Shown piece by piece: positions 3,498 to 39,597 of a stretch of 39,860 nucleotides of DNA. Source of the DNA: a virus. Position 1 is the stretch's first letter; each line of letters starts with the position of its first letter. Under the pieces are notes generated by a model. The model saw only the letters and a program-made list of their open reading frames with translations. It searched no databases and was not told the origin of the DNA. The translations under genes were made by a program, and so were the position numbers. Location of the stretch: the IMG/VR virus record IMGVR_UViG_3300028806_000002, positions 1 through 39,860 of that record. One strand, 5' to 3'.

Positions 3498-3541
3498 TTA
3501 ATCCCCAGCTTGCATTAGCAATAGTGCAAGCGATGGATTAA
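3498..3541 (+). repeat. Intergenic structured element, copy 3 (44 nt)
   Basis: Identical in sequence to copy 1 (2769-2812). Confidence 0.7.
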
Positions 3542-3556
3542 CTTAACTAAGAGGTA

Positions 3557-3796
3557 ATGAAAATGTTTAATATCAGCACACAACAAGATTTTAAATTACG
3601 CGCTCCAAAAAATGATGCTTTAGAAATAGCTAAAATATTCAAAAGATTTGGAGTATTTGAAAATGTTAAAACAGTTCCCCTAAGAAATTCGTCTGATATG
3701 TACGTAATCAGTAATTATGACTTGAGAAACAGAAAAGAAGTTATAACTATACTAAATGAATTAGATACGAGATTTTTAATAAGGAGATATATTTGA
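3557..3796 (+). CDS. Hypothetical protein
   Basis: 79-aa track ORF. Leader is GAGGTAATGAAAATG; the second ATG (3563) has the better SD spacing. Confidence 0.65.
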   Translation: MKMFNISTQQDFKLRAPKNDALEIAKIFKRFGVFENVKTVPLRNSSDMYVISNYDLRNRKEVITILNELDTRFLIRRYI

Positions 3797-6117: not shown

Positions 6118-6510
6118 TTAGGGCGGAGTATAAACATCTCTCAAATATTCTTCAATACTTTCTTTTGCTTTTATCCAATCGTCGAAATATTCGGCTTTGT
6201 AACCTTGGGTTCTAACTTTTTCCATGAAAACATACTGATTGCCTCTTGGCTTTTCGCCGGGTCGCTTAAGCTCGATAAAATAGCCGTGATATTTTCTGTT
6301 AGCAATTGGCATAAATAAATCTGATGCGCCTGCCGTTAATCCTGTACTTTTTTCGCGCATGCTCATTGCAAATGATCTCTTTGCACCATTGGGTATTGAT
6401 ATTATCAGTATACTAAGCATTCTACACCAGTTTACTAATGCTGCTTGGATTTGCCACTCTTTTGTGCAAGTAGCGTCGATCATGTTTGATTTTCTTGCCA
6501 CTTTCCGCAT
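6118..6510 (-). CDS. VRR-NUC domain nuclease
   Basis: EWQIQAALVNW...IPNG...GLTAGASDLFMPI...GYFIELKRPGEKPRGNQYVF...GY matches the VRR-NUC (PD-(D/E)XK) pattern. Start ATG 6510 follows GGAGG. Confidence 0.7.
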   Translation of the reverse strand: MRKVARKSNMIDATCTKEWQIQAALVNWCRMLSILIISIPNGAKRSFAMSMREKSTGLTAGASDLFMPIANRKYHGYFIELKRPGEKPRGNQYVFMEKVRTQGYKAEYFDDWIKAKESIEEYLRDVYTPP

Positions 6511-6607
6511 CACTACCTCCATGTAGTTTTTTCAGATATTCTAAATATTTAACTCGGTTCTTTTTGCATTTCATACGCCAACGGTAGTCCTTTTCATATT
6601 GTTCCAT
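6422..6607 (-). CDS. Possible small basic protein overlapping the VRR-NUC start
   Basis: GGAG lies 9 nt upstream of ATG 6607, but the last ~89 nt overlap the next gene in another frame. Confidence 0.3.
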   Translation of the reverse strand: MEQYEKDYRWRMKCKKNRVKYLEYLKKLHGGSDAESGKKIKHDRRYLHKRVANPSSISKLV

Positions 6608-6635
6608 TTATGTACACTCCATGTTCCACGTAGAA

Positions 6636-6848
6636 CTATTCCATGTTCAATATCCGGCTTATGTGTTCACATCTTGATCTAAATTCTTGTCTTTCAGTCT
6701 GCAAAAAGCATTCTTTCCATTCTCTGTCATCTGAGTAAATTATTATTTTATACCCATTTTCGACACTATCAAACTTCACCCACTTGATAATTTCCGTTCG
6801 CACTAAAAATTTACCTGATTCCGTGGTAACTTCTAAAAATTTCATCAA
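6636..6848 (-). CDS. Hypothetical protein
   Basis: 70-aa track ORF in the operon orientation. Confidence 0.55.
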   Translation of the reverse strand: MMKFLEVTTESGKFLVRTEIIKWVKFDSVENGYKIIIYSDDREWKECFLQTERQEFRSRCEHISRILNME

Positions 6849-6881
6849 ACCTCCAAATTTGCGTTTTAAGCGATTATTTTC

Positions 6882-7187
6882 CTACACGCTACTACCGCAT
6901 TGTTTAACAAAGATCTTCTTGCCATGATCATCCAATTCGATCTCATAGGTATCCTTGAGGTCATTCTCAGAGTACTTTGCAATTTCCTTTAGCATTTCCA
7001 ATTCGCTCTTATCTGTGTAAAACTTTCTTGCTACGCGCTTGAGTTGAGTAAACTTGGACGCCACCTCTTTGTAGCATTCTGGCCATTTTTTGTCACTAAA
7101 GTAAATATTTTTCAATTTCATGCAAATCGGCGTACCAAGATTTTCTAATGCTTTTAAATATTCTCTGCCAGATTCATTCGCATCCAT
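6882..7187 (-). CDS. Hypothetical protein
   Basis: 101-aa track ORF with a GGAGAAAT SD upstream. Confidence 0.6.
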   Translation of the reverse strand: MDANESGREYLKALENLGTPICMKLKNIYFSDKKWPECYKEVASKFTQLKRVARKFYTDKSELEMLKEIAKYSENDLKDTYEIELDDHGKKIFVKQCGSSV

Positions 7188-7219
7188 ACGAATTTCTCCT
7201 TTTTCATACGTCTATTGGC

Positions 7220-14085: not shown

Positions 14086-14187
14086 ATATTTATAATTTAA
14101 TGAGTTTAAACAAATAACGTTATATAACGATAAACGTTAAACGAAACGATATAAAACCTGTTGAAAAGGTATGGGTCTATTCAACAT

Positions 14188-14235
14188 GCATTCGGGCATT
14201 CGGGCATTCGGGCATTCGGGCATTCGTGAATGCCG
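14188..14235. repeat. 8-bp tandem repeat GCATTCGG x4.9 ending in a palindrome
   Basis: Copies at 14188, 14196, 14204, 14212 and 14220. The last merges into GGCATTCGTGAATGCC (inverted repeat). Confidence 0.9.
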
Positions 14236-14236
14236 G

Positions 14237-14269
14237 ATATCTAGGACATATCTAGGACATATAGATGAC
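14237..14269. repeat. 11-bp tandem repeat ATATCTAGGAC x2 plus a degenerate third copy
   Basis: Copies at 14237-14247 and 14248-14258, then ATATAGATGAC. Confidence 0.85.
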
Positions 14270-14304
14270 GCTTTCATGACGCTCATGATGACGCTTATGA
14301 CGCT
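14265..14304. repeat. Four copies of ATGACGCT at 9-12-bp spacing
   Basis: Copies start at 14265, 14276, 14288 and 14297. Confidence 0.85.
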
Positions 14305-14307
14305 TTT

Positions 14308-14367
14308 GAACCCACTTAAACCCACTTAAACCCAGATAAACCCAGATAAACCCAGATAAACCCAGTT
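14308..14367. repeat. 10-bp tandem repeat (A/G)AACCCA(CTT/GAT) x6, helically phased
   Basis: GAACCCACTT, AAACCCACTT, AAACCCAGAT x3, AAACCCAGTT. The phased A-tracts suggest bent DNA. Confidence 0.9.
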
Positions 14368-14423
14368 AATATACAAGTAAATATGAGATATACTTGACAT
14401 TACTAAATAACGGAATATTTACT

Positions 14424-34281: not shown

Positions 34282-36459
34282 TTATTCACGTTTTGCAACT
34301 TTTGTCTTTTCATGTGCTGCCTTATGTTGTAATTCCTTATGATGCATTTCTTTTTCATGATGCAACTGACTAGCGTGCGTGAGCATCTTAATCATGTTCT
34401 GAGAATTAGTTATTTGCATATCAACCCCCATACGCTGATTTTCAGCCGTATAACGCAATATAGTCTCTTGCAACTGAGCTGCTTCTTTCTGCTTATCAGC
34501 TTCTAACTTCGCAAATCCAAGTGACATATCTTGTTGCGTCTCAAGTGCCTTTCGTTGCAATTCTTGTTTCTTCAATTCTAATTCCTGCATCTTCATTTGA
34601 GATTCTTGTTGTGCTTGTTGTGCTTTTTGTTGCATCTCTTGTTGCTTGAGTTGTAACATCATTGCATCAGGTGAAGGTTGCGGAGGTTTAGGAGGTAATG
34701 GTTTACCAGTCTTTCCAGCTTCAATTATTTCAGGCGGAACTAAAGTTCTTAATCGATTACGTAATTCCATATTGTTATCTAGTGGAAGATTTTCAGCGTA
34801 TAGATCTGCAATCATTGGGAACACTTGACCAGCCCTATCAGCTTGCAAAACGGATTGTAGCGATAGCAGTGCTTCTTGCTTCTGTCCCTCGTAAGAAGGC
34901 CCCGCTTTAAGTCTGATATTATACTTACCCTTAGTCATATCATTTTTCATTTGCAACCCATACTCATCCATAGGTTGATTGATATTGACTGTCTGAGATT
35001 CAGATTCCGGCATATTCAATACAAGTGAGCGCTCAGTATCATAGATTTCAGGTATCCACTCGTTTATGATTTCGCCACCCGTTGCAATTGCGATATTTAT
35101 TGAATTGAATGGTGTTGCTGTATTACGTGTACCTCTATTTGTTCGAGCTTCGATTGCAGTGCCAGAAACTTCATTGCCTAACTCGCCCATTTGTGTATCA
35201 TACATACCCGTGCCGCTCTGGATATCCATTAAGGTACGTTCGTATTGTTGTACCAGGGATTGTGATAACTCGGGCGGCTTTAGTTGTTCAGGCTTAGCAC
35301 CGCTAGCCGTTTCATCGTAATATAACGCACCATTTACTACCGAAGGGTCACGCCATTGCTGCTGTGCATCAGGAGATGCTGCGCACTTACGCGGCATGAT
35401 GAATTGATCAAACCTAGATATTTTCAGCATATAAGCTGATTGTGTTGCGAGATAATTTAGATATTTCTGTGCGTCTTTGACATCTTTGAAGAACGAACGT
35501 GTGATCTGCTGACCTTGTTTAGAGAAATAACTTTTCTGGTCAACAAAAACAACGGGCAATAATGTGGCTTTAGAAGGTAAATAAGTCTCTTCAAGTACAA
35601 AATCACCCGCTATCTGGGTATGTTTTATTTTATACTTTATTGATTCACGTTTATCAACAACTGTAACAGCTTGGCCATTACTAATAATATATTTTTTACC
35701 GTCAAACTTTACTTTCTCTAACTTTTTAAATTCTTTATCATTAACAATAGAACCATCTGATAGTTTGTAAATTGTTATCTCTTCAGGTTCTTTATTGTAA
35801 TCATCGACAATTGTAATCGAATCATCATCAGCAAAGGCAATTGTGCTATCTTCGGTTATTGCAGTCGTTCCAATCTGCGATTCAATGTCACGACCCCATG
35901 TATCTCTAAATTTTCTGCGTGATATTCTCGTTTTATATCCTGAAAACATGCCATCTACTTTACAAACATGTTTTGCTGATATATCCCAGTAACAACGATT
36001 AGGGTCTTCGAACGGATAAATCTTTATTATTTGCTCAAAACTTTCATTATCTTTGTATTCAGTATCTATTCTATATGCACCAAATCCACCGCAAGTCGAA
36101 TGACTAAATGCATTTTGATATACACTCTTAGCATCTGAGTTAAAACTGATATCTTTGACAATTGCAGCACGAACTTGCGCGGTTTCTGGGGGAACATCTT
36201 CGGAAGGCATGATCTGCATATTCGGTGTATTGAATATTTGCTCACCGCAAAGATGATTATGCAGAACGCCAAGTTTATTGAATACTAATGGGATTTTGTT
36301 ATAACGTTCGAATAACTCAGATTCATTTTCTCGCCACTGGTCGCCCATGATGAAATCGAGCCACTCATAGTACATAGACCTGTTTATAGTCCAATACTTC
36401 TCCCACTTATCGACTCTATCCCTTATCTTCCGGCATAGTTCCGGATTTTTGCTTGGCAT
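34282..36459 (-). CDS. Portal protein (P22-like, 725 aa, long C-terminal coiled-coil barrel)
   Basis: The N-terminus DFIMGDQWRENESELFERYNKIPLVFNKLG fits portal motifs. The Q/K/E-rich C-terminal helix resembles the P22 gp1 barrel. Position relative to terL and scaffold also fits. Confidence 0.8.
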   Translation of the reverse strand: MPSKNPELCRKIRDRVDKWEKYWTINRSMYYEWLDFIMGDQWRENESELFERYNKIPLVFNKLGVLHNHLCGEQIFNTPNMQIMPSEDVPPETAQVRAAIVKDISFNSDAKSVYQNAFSHSTCGGFGAYRIDTEYKDNESFEQIIKIYPFEDPNRCYWDISAKHVCKVDGMFSGYKTRISRRKFRDTWGRDIESQIGTTAITEDSTIAFADDDSITIVDDYNKEPEEITIYKLSDGSIVNDKEFKKLEKVKFDGKKYIISNGQAVTVVDKRESIKYKIKHTQIAGDFVLEETYLPSKATLLPVVFVDQKSYFSKQGQQITRSFFKDVKDAQKYLNYLATQSAYMLKISRFDQFIMPRKCAASPDAQQQWRDPSVVNGALYYDETASGAKPEQLKPPELSQSLVQQYERTLMDIQSGTGMYDTQMGELGNEVSGTAIEARTNRGTRNTATPFNSINIAIATGGEIINEWIPEIYDTERSLVLNMPESESQTVNINQPMDEYGLQMKNDMTKGKYNIRLKAGPSYEGQKQEALLSLQSVLQADRAGQVFPMIADLYAENLPLDNNMELRNRLRTLVPPEIIEAGKTGKPLPPKPPQPSPDAMMLQLKQQEMQQKAQQAQQESQMKMQELELKKQELQRKALETQQDMSLGFAKLEADKQKEAAQLQETILRYTAENQRMGVDMQITNSQNMIKMLTHASQLHHEKEMHHKELQHKAAHEKTKVAKRE

Positions 36460-36486
36460 AATAAGTTAATCCTTTAACTTATCGCT

Positions 36487-36516
36487 ATTATAGCATTTTG
36501 GTGTATTTTACACCAA
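36487..36516 (-). promoter_or_regulatory. Extended -10 promoter upstream of the portal gene
   Basis: On the minus strand: TTGGTG, 18-nt spacer, (TGC)TATAAT. The -10 box lies ~28 nt upstream of portal ATG 36459. Confidence 0.5.
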
Positions 36517-37021
36517 TATCATCCTTGCCTTAGTAAACAAAACAGTACAACACAATACAACACAATACACTATTAAAAACCCTTACCTTACATTTCAGCA
36601 CAAAACAATACACCACACCACAACACATGACAGGAAAAAATTAAAACCCTTACATTTCCTTACAACGCATAACATCACAATGCATTACATATCGGCACAA
36701 TACATCACAATATTAAAAACCCGTACATTTCCTTACAATGCATTACATCACACAACAATACGCCACAACACAAAACAAAACATCACATGACACTATTAAA
36801 AACCCGCACATTTCCTTACAACGCATAACATCACAATGCATTACATATCGGCACAATACATCACAAAATAAAAATCCTTACCTTACAAGACATTACCCCA
36901 CAACACAGCACGCTACAACACATTACAAAATTAAAACCCTTACCTTGCCTTACGCCACAGGACAGCACATCACATAACAGAACCTGACATGACAATATTA
37001 AAAACCCTTACCTCGCCTTAC
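36515..37021. repeat. Repeat array A: 8 copies of a 62-83-bp unit
   Basis: Plus-strand core is ATTAAAAACCC(K)TAC(A/C)TT(TC)CCTTACAA. Copies start at 36515 (degenerate), 36572, 36640, 36712, 36795, 36867, 36930 and 36997. Inter-core segments are A/C-rich and related to each other. Confidence 0.9.
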
Positions 37022-37072
37022 GAAACAGCACGCTACAGCACGCTACAGCACATCACACCACATTACACAATA

Positions 37073-37104
37073 GTTTCAATCCACGCGCTCGTGAAGAGCG
37101 CGAC
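37073..37104 (-). CRISPR. Solitary type I-C-like CRISPR repeat (single copy, no array)
   Basis: The minus strand reads GTCGCGCTCTTCACGAGCGCGTGGATTGAAAC. This shows the I-C hallmarks: GTCGCGC 5' end, 7-bp stem CGCGCTC/GAGCGCG with a 5-nt loop, and an 11-nt TGGATTGAAAC tail. It is a GC-rich island in an AT/AC-rich spacer. Confidence 0.8.
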
Positions 37105-37137
37105 TACAAAACAGCACAACACAACACACAACATCAA

Positions 37138-37166
37138 AGTATAATTATTAGTTACTCTCACGCCAA
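37138..37166 (-). promoter_or_regulatory. Candidate promoter reading into the solitary repeat
   Basis: On the minus strand: TTGGCG, 17-nt spacer, TATACT. It overlaps the 3' end of ORF 37148..37693, with the -10 box ending 33 nt upstream of the repeat. Confidence 0.35.
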
Positions 37167-37693
37167 TTCGTCACAACAAATCGTCCATATATACCTTTTC
37201 TAGCTGGCCTAAAATCACCTAACCCTATTTTGGTTCCAGCATCGTCAATCAAAGTACGGATGAATTTTGGGCTAAACATCTTTAAATCCAACGTCAAAGT
37301 AAAATCTATGCACCAATTATCTAGCCTAGGTCTATGACAAACGATTCGACCACCAGTTGACGGAACAACGACAGCCCTGCTATCAACTTCCCACGTTTCA
37401 GGCGATTTAAAATACACGATTTCGCCTAAAATCATCACACCAGCAGGAACTAAAGAACTTCTAGCAGTCGTTACTTTTACCTTACCATCTTTATGAAATT
37501 TACCTGCTTCAACCAAGCAAGCAAAAATATTCACAGTAGGATAATATAATTTTTCATCCTCATCGACATAGCAAACACGTCTAGCAGCTTCGCGAGGTAA
37601 TATATCTTTATCTTTTTTTACTTTCTGCTCATCAATATTAAAACGATTCATCAGAAGCGGTGTTATCCCTGTTATTTCTATATCAATATTCAT
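37148..37693 (-). CDS. Hypothetical 181-aa protein with RAMP-like motifs
   Basis: Track ORF. Its SD is the double AAGG of array copy B1 (TAAGGTAAGGATATTAAATG). Motifs in RAMP order: IEITGITPLLMNRF, LYYPTVNIFACLVEAGK, GLGDFRPARKGIYGRFVV (Gly-rich loop-like). Confidence 0.7.
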   Translation of the reverse strand: MNIDIEITGITPLLMNRFNIDEQKVKKDKDILPREAARRVCYVDEDEKLYYPTVNIFACLVEAGKFHKDGKVKVTTARSSLVPAGVMILGEIVYFKSPETWEVDSRAVVVPSTGGRIVCHRPRLDNWCIDFTLTLDLKMFSPKFIRTLIDDAGTKIGLGDFRPARKGIYGRFVVTNWRESN

Positions 37694-37695
37694 TT

Positions 37696-37986
37696 AATAT
37701 CCTTACCTTAGATTACAGCGCAATACAAAACAGCACGTCACAATACAACACATTATTAAAAACCCGTACATTTCCTTACAACACAAAACACTACATTACA
37801 TAACGCCACAATACATCACATCACAGAAAATTATTAAAAACCCTTACATTGGATTGCATTAGAGCACAAGACAAGACACTACAACACAAGACAGCACAAT
37901 TAAAAACCCTTACATTTCCTTACAACACAAAACATTACATAACGCCACAATACATCACGTTTAAAAACCCGTACATTTCCTTACAA
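37696..37986. repeat. Repeat array B: 5 copies of the same unit
   Basis: Cores at 37696 (degenerate, doubles as the RBS), 37755, 37833, 37899 and 37960. Spacers are homologous to one another (ACACAAAACAYTACATAACGCCACAATACATCAC). Confidence 0.9.
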
Positions 37987-38076
37987 CACAAGACAGTACA
38001 ATACAGTACAATACAAAACATCACGTTTAATGAAACAAAAAAATATACATAGATAATTGATACTTGTAAACATTTA

Positions 38077-39597
38077 CTATCGAAACATCCCTCTTTCGTG
38101 TGGCATTAACTTGGGTACTTCAATTGCTGTCTGTACGCCGTGAAACCCTCCAGCAAACGTTAAACACAACGCATCAGCACCATCAGGGCTTGGCAATCCT
38201 CTTGCCCGTAAATCATCCTTCGATTCAATCTGTACCTGCCCATTTGAGTTTTCTTTGAAGCCTAATGAACACAATTCGCCGTGCAATGTGTCCTCGTCCG
38301 GTATCTGCACTGGCATATCTTGATATAGCCAATCTCGCATATCACCCCACAATTCCGCACGCTGATTCTTGTAACGTTCCTTGTCATTAGCACTACGAGC
38401 AACATTTACACCTTCAACACAGTCATAACCCATTTCATTTAATCTGTCCACAACGCCTGCACCGATTCCAATGCAATCAATATATACTTTGTCGGGTTTT
38501 TCCTCGGTTATAATGCGCTTAACACGGCCTGCAATTTCCATCGTATTGAGATGCGAGACACGTTCTAAGTTATAAGCACATCTTCCCTTACGGCGAATAA
38601 TAGCAGTCCGATCTCTATCTGATATCGCAACATCCACCCCAATAATAAGCTTGCTACCCATATCAACTTTTGCAGCACGCGCAAATTCAACGTACTTAGA
38701 ATTGATAAACACGTTGTGAATAGGGTTTTTAAATGCTTCAATTGAATTAAAAGGGTACTCAACATTAAATCGTTCTCTTCCTGCATCAAAATCCTTTGAA
38801 AACTCGTTAATTTTTAACCTACGCCAAGATAAATTATCATTAGTTAACCCATTTTTTCCATACTGAGACACTAAATACTCTTCTTCATCCGATAAATGCA
38901 TATTTTCGGAGTTATGCGAGTACTCATCATTCCAATACCATGGCAAAAATATACTTTGATACTCACTATCAGGCGACATACCTGATAACCAGCGCTCATG
39001 GAAGTAATTTCCGATACCATTTGCCGTAGATTCTAGGATAATTTCCGTACCTGGTTCATTTGAGATTGCCTGCAAGATACCTTTGCTATGATCTTCAGCA
39101 AATGCCCAAAATGCGACTTCTGAACCGTGGAAAAGCTGCACGGTTTGCGACCGACCGACTGCTTTATTGCCTGCAGTACCAATCGCGTAGCCTGAATCTA
39201 ATTGCTTAAAGTTTAATTCCTTTGCATTATCCGTATTCGGCTTAGGGCATAATCCTGGTTCCAAGTTTTCATTAAACCGTTTGGCCATATTGAACAGATT
39301 ATTAGTTGCTTCTTTATCGTGCGTGAGAATAAATGCTTTTTTACCGCGCGAAGTGATGATCTGATGGAAGAACCTAGCCTGTATATATGTTGAACAACCT
39401 TGTTGTCGTCCCTTTAAAATGCAGGCACGCACACGTCCCGTCGATTCCTTTTGACGAGCAAGACGTTCATGTAAGTAGGACTGTGCGCGATTAAACGTGA
39501 AATACTTTTTAACACCGGCCTTGTCTTTAACAATCAGAAATCGCTCGGCAAATTTCTGAAAATCCCTAATTGAATCTAATTTAGCTTGACTTATCAA
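38077..39597 (-). CDS. terL: Terminase large subunit
   Basis: 506 aa. Deviant Walker A in ACILKGRQQGCSTY, FILTHDKEA, and a C-terminal nuclease-like IGVDVA...YIDCIGIGAGV...DGADAL. The only in-frame start is TTG 39597. Confidence 0.85.
   Translation of the reverse strand: MISQAKLDSIRDFQKFAERFLIVKDKAGVKKYFTFNRAQSYLHERLARQKESTGRVRACILKGRQQGCSTYIQARFFHQIITSRGKKAFILTHDKEATNNLFNMAKRFNENLEPGLCPKPNTDNAKELNFKQLDSGYAIGTAGNKAVGRSQTVQLFHGSEVAFWAFAEDHSKGILQAISNEPGTEIILESTANGIGNYFHERWLSGMSPDSEYQSIFLPWYWNDEYSHNSENMHLSDEEEYLVSQYGKNGLTNDNLSWRRLKINEFSKDFDAGRERFNVEYPFNSIEAFKNPIHNVFINSKYVEFARAAKVDMGSKLIIGVDVAISDRDRTAIIRRKGRCAYNLERVSHLNTMEIAGRVKRIITEEKPDKVYIDCIGIGAGVVDRLNEMGYDCVEGVNVARSANDKERYKNQRAELWGDMRDWLYQDMPVQIPDEDTLHGELCSLGFKENSNGQVQIESKDDLRARGLPSPDGADALCLTFAGGFHGVQTAIEVPKLMPHERGMFR

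Follow-up and report, generated by a model that had tools for sequence, protein, structure and literature searches.

A phage terminase-portal island that very probably encodes a VIPR system with U-G-U pentamer guide RNAs and an embedded type I-C CRISPR repeat

The window analysed here, the whole of IMG/VR virus record IMGVR_UViG_3300028806_000002 (positions 1 to 39,860), is a complete uncultivated phage genome of 39,860 bp with direct terminal repeats. Between its large terminase gene (terL) and its P22-like portal gene lies a 1.6-kb island that consists of a single 181-aa open reading frame (ORF) and two flanking repeat arrays, array A at 36536-37147 and array B at 37694-38030. Both arrays repeat with a period of 5 nt, and it is this pattern, together with the protein encoded between them, that relates the island to the recently described VIPR systems of phages (short for Viral Interference Programmable Repeat).

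Autocorrelation, assessed against 200 dinucleotide-preserving shuffles, revealed a pronounced period-5 signal in both arrays. Array A has a lag-5 identity of 0.512 (z 9.6), with harmonics at lags 10 (z 11.1), 15 (z 8.8) and 20 (z 7.0) and depletion at lags 4 and 6 (z about -5 to -6) and also at lags 9 and 11, while the corresponding values for array B are a lag-5 identity of 0.51 (z 7.7) and a lag-10 z of 8.9. The inter-array ORF and the portal gene, used as controls, carry period 3 only, and a sliding scan of the whole genome confined period 5 to 36451-37150 and 37651-38050. The register is strict only inside units of ~60-80 nt and shifts by 1-3 nt at every unit boundary, the unit start phases modulo 5 being 0,4,3,0,2 and 3,2,4,2,0,2,4,2,4. 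Because the register resets in this way between units, a Fourier transform of the whole arrays has no period-5 peak (z 0.1 and 1.1); the power of single units at period 5 reaches z 2.7-8.1 in 13 of the 14.

On the minus strand the two arrays break down into 14 units, every one of them a run of 6-11 pentamers (Table 1). Over 117 guide pentamers, position 1 is T in 89% and a pyrimidine in 98% (0.57 bits), position 2 is G in 97% (0.20 bits), and position 3 is T in 91% and a pyrimidine in 97% (0.50 bits); positions 4 and 5 are near-random (1.82 and 1.88 bits, respectively), and G occupies position 1 in only 2 of the 117. The repeating element is thus a conserved U-G-U triplet followed by two variable bases, UGU-NN. 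Thirteen of the 14 chains end, with the register unbroken, in a conserved 25-nt tail that reads TGTAA GGAAA TGTAM GGGTT TTTAA(T) or a close variant. The tail lacks C, and its conserved core keeps the phase set by the pentamers of that unit. As the first tract of both arrays has no core upstream, the core belongs at the 3' end of the unit, as published for VIPR. Folding of five units gave z values of +0.8, +0.9, -2.95, +1.6 and -0.7, with no common structure.

The base composition follows from this architecture. Plus-strand G accounts for 47 of 612 bases (7.7%) in array A and 24 of 337 (7.1%) in array B, and the GC skews of -0.60 and -0.58, respectively, are the most extreme in the genome; the bias arises because U-G-U, three of every five bases, is fixed in each pentamer and the tail contains no C. 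Two plus-strand ORFs of 79 and 51 aa, both inside the arrays, were rejected as coding, the period there being 5 and not 3. A preliminary description of this DNA had anticipated much of this picture: the 5-nt period, the scarcity of plus-strand G with its strong strand asymmetry, the in-phase core, and a highly non-random, non-coding stretch best read as minus-strand RNA are all borne out, and the pentamer strings that it quoted occur in the sequence as written. The strictness that it claimed for the register applies inside units and fails across the arrays. Its further suggestion that the GT-rich single strand offers a RecA-loading, Chi-like context found no support, the strand bias being accounted for by U-G-U and the C-free tail.

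The protein encoded between the arrays belongs to no Pfam family and is a member of phrog_4652, to which PHROG assigns no function; it has >1,000 relatives in metagenomes. A profile built from 28 relatives matched one solved structure, PDB 36pp_D, annotated as 'SUSP1 Vipr protein' (E 9.3e-13, residues 4-176). Alignment with the SUSP1 gene product in hhalign is full length (probability 98.6%, E 6e-16, 164 aligned columns), and tblastn of SUSP1 Vipr against the window returned this ORF as its sole match (E 8e-11), with an identity between the two proteins of 24-26%. Modelling with AlphaFold2 (predicted local distance difference test score, pLDDT, 90.3; predicted template-modelling score, pTM, 0.85) gave a predicted Cas7-like RAMP fold with an RRM core, a G-loop and a thumb, for which the top PDB matches in Foldseek are Csm3, type VII Cas7 and Cas7-11 (E 1e-6 to 1e-5, TM about 0.5-0.58). 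The G-loop GLGDFRP aligns with GVGDWRP of SUSP1 and, on alignment only, R121, D160, F161 and R162 correspond to SUSP1 R138, D177, W178 and R179. In SUSP1, these four residues and H17 hold the conserved RNA triplet, with H17 reading its first G (bioRxiv 10.64898/2026.04.26.720920, 10.64898/2026.04.26.720927).

[quoted passage not shown] By their account, the RAMP protein Vipr assembles on vrRNAs, made of GGY/NN pentamers and a 3' tail, into a filament in which each 5-nt repeat is bound by one protomer; GGY is hidden from pairing, and the NN bases pair with DNA such that every third target base is skipped. The published work also equates the skipped base with the wobble position, reports no self-targeting in its systems, and gives as outcome the transcriptional silencing of competing phages and satellites. 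Since UGU-NN units with tails flank a homologue of SUSP1 Vipr, we identify the locus as a VIPR system: both arrays are, with high confidence, vrRNA guide-RNA genes and the inter-array ORF is Vipr. The period-5 pattern is accordingly explained by a system already in print in 2026 preprints. The pentamer architecture, its occurrence exclusively together with vipr (10 of 10 related loci), the homology and fold of the protein and the alignment of RNA-contacting residues are direct observations, and the filament, the skipping of 1 nt and the silencing of transcription would carry over from the published SUSP1 and P. fulva VIPR work.

By analogy with those systems, transcription of the minus strand would either start at the promoter-like site that lies just downstream of terL or result from late-operon read-through, and the transcript would be cut into RNAs of ~60-80 nt, each with 6-11 UGU-NN pentamers followed by the 25-nt tail. 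One Vipr protomer would bind each pentamer, building a helical filament that buries U-G-U and exposes the two variable bases; the joined NN dinucleotides may then follow a gapped code in pairing with double-stranded DNA (NN, one base skipped, NN again), and the bound complex could block transcription of a competing mobile element. The preliminary description had proposed a multimeric RNA-binding protein on a spaced motif, and a multimeric protein is indeed likely, in the form of this proposed filament and not of a ring-shaped protein or a sponge target. It had also taken the 5-nt register as grounds to set Cas7 aside, a step that the Cas7-like RAMP encoded between the arrays overturns.

Several features weigh against this assignment. 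The triplet is UGU and not the GGY of the characterised systems, and SUSP1 H17, the residue that reads the first G, corresponds, on alignment only, to N16 of this protein. Where SUSP1 has a pseudoknot, the tail in this phage forms no stable structure; the island lacks a vap gene, with vipr alone between terL and portal, and no vap1 homologue was found in the genome. Nor did a search under the 1-nt skip rule of viral contigs, metagenomes, the phage's own genome and its relatives yield a convincing guide target. As the preprint accepts related consensuses such as YNNNG, the UGU triplet rules out a type II likeness but not VIPR membership.

Table 1. Features of the island and its flanking genes
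Feature	Position	Strand	Period-5 z	Remarks
Large terminase (terL)	38077-39597	minus		phrog_2
Sigma-70-like promoter candidate, TTTACA-17-TATATT	38042..38070	minus		consensus match only, 10/12; between terL stop and array B
vrRNA unit B1	37961..38025	minus	8.1	8 YGU-NN pentamers + tail
vrRNA unit B2	37900..37960	minus	5.6	7 pentamers + tail
vrRNA unit B3	37834..37899	minus	4.4	9 pentamers (final two degenerate) + shortened tail
vrRNA unit B4	37756..37833	minus	6.3	10 pentamers + tail; guide related to B2
vrRNA unit B5	37694..37752	minus		7 pentamers + degenerate tail TAAGGTAAGGATATTAAATG
vipr gene	37148..37693	minus		181-aa Cas7-like RAMP (predicted fold), homologue of SUSP1 Vipr; phrog_4652, PDB 36pp_D
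Tract A0	37104..37133	minus		6 pentamers; ends in CRISPR repeat, not tail
Solitary type I-C CRISPR repeat, 32 nt	37073..37104	minus, vrRNA sense		occupies tail position of tract A0
vrRNA unit A1	36998..37072	minus	4.3	9 pentamers + tail; directly downstream of CRISPR repeat
vrRNA unit A2	36930..36997	minus	6.8	8 pentamers + tail
vrRNA unit A3	36868..36929	minus	2.8	8 pentamers + tail
vrRNA unit A4	36796..36867	minus	6.0	9 pentamers + tail; guide identical to A6
vrRNA unit A5	36713..36795	minus	4.5	11 pentamers + tail; longest guide
vrRNA unit A6	36640..36712	minus	7.1	9 pentamers + tail; A4 guide duplicate
vrRNA unit A7	36573..36639	minus	3.2	9 pentamers + tail
vrRNA unit A8	36515..36572	minus	2.7	7 pentamers + degenerate tail, then small hairpin + portal leader
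P22-like portal gene	34282-36459	minus		PF16510, E 3.5e-94

The pairing of arrays and vipr extends well beyond this genome. In each of the nine related viral loci, G-rich arrays with period 5 flank the homologue on either side, in sense with vipr; their pentamers are NGY-NN and their tails of the GGTAA-GGRTTTTTAAT type. The relative L002 is syntenic, its terL and portal being about 80% identical to those described here, yet its unit number and NN content differ. More distant members, at 64% and 54% identity and including L022 and L024, also have arrays, those of the 54% clade being nearer to GGY, and the SUSP1 locus, checked directly, has the same layout, its vipr-sense strand consisting of GGT-NN chains followed by the pseudoknot tail. 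In relatives such as L010, L020 and L022, the arrays are remote from the genes for packaging and lie amid small genes or within operons for recombination; they track vipr and not terL.

This distribution bears on the possibility that the arrays act as DNA, be it as a packaging (pac) site, an origin of replication, bent DNA or a Chi-like hotspot for the loading of RecA. The position of the island between terL and portal would suit such an element, as would the flexibility of TG/CA steps and a lag-10 identity as strong as that at lag 5. However, where packaging genes are remote the arrays nonetheless follow vipr, the phase reset at each unit argues against long-range helical phasing, and no conserved Chi-like motif is present, and we therefore regard a DNA-level role as most improbable.

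Individual relatives differ in their surroundings. In L022 (3853-4113; 64% Vipr identity), whose tails contain AAGGA, the vrRNA array is followed immediately on its downstream side by a gene of the CsrA family (PF02599). In L020 (3567-3800; 55% identity), vipr sits within a recombination operon that encodes AAA_23, an RNase_T-like exonuclease and RecT, and a 77-aa 'gene' called just downstream overlaps a period-5 stretch, so that the ORF call is probably mistaken and the stretch a vrRNA array. In L010, small ORFs are interspersed with about 20 vrRNA-like units; at 6266-7190 this relative also has a tRNA (6266-6337) and, after it, ~600 nt of non-coding DNA that is richer in GC and matches no Rfam family at gathering thresholds.

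The variable bases themselves are informative about the likely nature of the targets. When the NN dinucleotides were scored under six frame models, their composition was best described as codon positions 1 and 2 in sense for 10 of the 13 distinct guides (+14.6 bits in total); the antisense wobble-skipping model gained +1.2 bits, and the four frames without wobble skipping scored -10 to -33 bits. Roughly called guides of the relatives follow the same codon-position trend more weakly. The NN composition agrees with the published wobble-skip rule and suggests protein-coding targets. Matches of the guides to the phage's own genome and to related loci, under skip rules 0-3, were at best at the level of shuffled guides, and 336 guide-genome tests against five complete relatives gave none with z > 3. 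Exact 1-nt-skip patterns of A5, A4/A6, B4 and A1 had no match in viral contigs. The 3 matches of A2, the 22 matches of A3, spread over about 9 unrelated gene families, and the 14 heterogeneous metagenome matches of A4/A6 were set aside as chance-like, and A5 had no match with <=3 mismatches in five metagenome-assembled genomes (MAGs) that carry the type I-C repeat described below. The best lead is a low-GC 71-kb contig (L026), in which the A4/A6 guide matches 18/18 and in frame within a primase/helicase ORF and B5 matches nearby, 13/14 and in frame; it is not significant after 168 tests and, being within chance, was not accepted as a target.

Codon-like guide content also helps to judge whether the transcript might be a protein sponge or attenuator, a GU-rich RNA that wraps and titrates a host TRAP-like 11-mer or CsrA. 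TRAP-like 11-mers read triplets every 5 nt and CsrA reads GGA, so that the 5-nt spacing resembles TRAP sites and each tail, with AAGGA and AAGGG about 11 nt apart, might attract CsrA, a gene of whose family adjoins the L022 array. The conserved triplet is nevertheless UGU and not (G/U)AG, the GGA motifs fall outside hairpin loops since the units are unstructured, and the genome has no CsrA gene, on which grounds identity as a TRAP- or CsrA-binding RNA was rejected; moreover, the NN bases are hypervariable and codon-like instead of neutral spacer, and the arrays always accompany a Cas7-like Vipr homologue. Sponging of a host protein is thus very unlikely to be what the arrays do.

The tails raise a separate regulatory question. 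The degenerate tail of B5, TAAGGTAAGGATATTAAATG (37694-37717, minus), supplies the Shine-Dalgarno sequence and the ATG of vipr, an arrangement from which Vipr binding to unit B5 could feed back on its own translation. In the relative L010 (4862-4890), the last bases of several tails are themselves the ATG start codons of small ORFs. These features could instead suit an array of tandem promoters or decoy ribosome-binding sites, in which the core, TTGTAA-17/18-TAATAT with a double AAGG, would be the functional part and the pentamers filler: the core of the last array B unit is the vipr Shine-Dalgarno sequence, several L010 cores lead into start codons, and one core passes a promoter scan. The consensus scan of the region, however, found 5 promoter-like sites against 6.7 +/- 2.7 in shuffles, hence no excess and no support for a promoter per vrRNA unit, the cores being no more promoter-like than chance; and filler would not hold the U-G-U bases at 89-97% while staying strictly in the register of the core. 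We give this explanation very little credence and retain the assignment of the arrays as vrRNA genes.

The closest known system to this one is the type II VIPR of Escherichia phage SUSP1, which comprises Vipr, vap1 and four vrRNAs (bioRxiv 10.64898/2026.04.26.720920,.720927; PDB 36pp). Both are phage-encoded and rely on a small (about 20 kDa) Cas7-like RAMP with a GxGD[WF]RP G-loop and, on alignment, a conserved thumb arginine; in both, vrRNA genes flank vipr on the same strand and consist of pentamers of three conserved and two hypervariable bases with an invariant 3' tail, and neither shows self-targeting, while the NN composition is consistent with wobble skipping. The two differ in the triplet, UGU here (G1 to U) and GGY there; in tract length, 6-11 pentamers as opposed to 9-16; and in the tail, which here is 25 nt, C-free, unstructured and in pentamer register, whereas that of SUSP1 forms a pseudoknot. 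Here, in addition, linkers of only 1-3 nt separate 14 units arranged head to tail, a vap gene is absent, the island lies between terL and portal, and an I-C repeat fills one tail position. In SUSP1 (L019:2200-2260, 3500-3560, 3660-3700), the motif GGGT(C/T)TTTTAA(G/T) stands ahead of every vrRNA tract and resembles the tail end GGGTTTTTAAT here, a likeness that may reflect a common processing or start signal at unit boundaries.

Besides the seven published types, the preprint (methods, figs S17-S18) mentions VIPR variants with the alternative repeat consensuses NNNGG, YNNNG and NNNNG and 'staggered' arrays. Set against these variants, UGU-NN read as Y-NN-(U)G fits YNNNG, the near-spacerless units resemble staggered arrays and relatives such as L010 have NGY-NN, but a U in 89% of first positions makes the consensus more specific than 'N' would. 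The backbone formed by Cas7 on class 1 CRISPR RNA (crRNA) likewise has a RAMP fold with one protomer per fixed RNA step, a thumb that flips bases at regular intervals and a variable guide capped by a constant handle; in VIPR, however, the step covers 5 nt, of which three are hidden and two pair, as opposed to 6 nt with one flipped, and this locus has no repeat-spacer structure, no Cas1/Cas2 and no other cas gene. Identity as a CRISPR array was accordingly rejected, since the 'spacers' are UGU-NN chains in a 5-nt register, no Rfam family matches and only a single true CRISPR repeat is present.

That repeat, which replaces the tail of tract A0, is identical over all 32 nt to the repeats of real arrays in MAGs of Casimicrobiaceae, Gammaproteobacteria, Lysobacterales, Fibrobacteria and Verrucomicrobiaceae. 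The 99 spacers from arrays with the identical repeat match the phage over just 10-19 nt, at the level of chance, and the repeat is absent from the nine related VIPR loci; it is best read as a recent insertion. RNA anti-CRISPRs (Racrs) are solitary repeat units found in phages (Nature 2023, PMC10651486), and this lone repeat in a phage genome, identical to those of real type I-C arrays, resembles them, with the difference that it sits in register inside a VIPR guide array in place of a vrRNA tail. By analogy it is possibly a Racr expressed from the VIPR transcript, and if Cas5c cut that transcript, vrRNA A1 would carry an I-C 5' handle. The text searched, from two of the three VIPR preprints, contains no case of a CRISPR repeat in a VIPR array.

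A more specific proposal, to which we attach only a minor share of our confidence, is that this clade forms a VIPR branch of its own. There, Vipr would recognise U-G-U and not G-G-Y, and the tail, unstructured and kept in register, would also serve as a ribosome-binding site with feedback through B5. In this phage, the I-C repeat in the tail position would moreover yield a chimeric RNA in which tract A0 is capped by an I-C hairpin and followed by a vrRNA with an I-C 5' handle; this RNA could act as an RNA anti-CRISPR carried on the VIPR transcript or borrow host Cas5c to process the array.

Elsewhere in the genome, a small hairpin, TTGGTGT-AAAAT-ACACCAA, and an extended -10-like box, TGCTATAAT, lie on the minus strand at 36460-36515, after the last unit and before the portal start; the box may be a separate portal promoter, and as it has no -35 element it is unlisted by the consensus scan. 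A cluster of dense short tandem repeats at 14126-14369 (8-nt x4.9, 11-nt x2.4, 12-nt x3.8, 10-nt x6.1) is intergenic, with plus-strand early genes on one side and a 1498-aa minus-strand gene on the other; it is iteron-like and could be a candidate origin or regulatory region, unrelated to the VIPR arrays. No Rfam family matched the window at gathering thresholds, blastn of the island against cultured phages and a search for the exact core pattern in viral contigs returned no match, and the closest cultured portals, at 27% identity, are those of phages of Vibrio, Shewanella, Ralstonia, Xylella and Rhodoferax.

For the VIPR family, a UGU code in which, on alignment, the G2- and Y3-contacting residues are kept and the H17 position is changed provides a natural comparison for how Vipr reads position 1, and a minimal locus of 14 guides with no vap gene and an unstructured tail bears on the strict requirements of VIPR function. 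The embedded host-type repeat, for its part, physically links VIPR, proposed to be older than CRISPR, with anti-CRISPR RNA mimicry.

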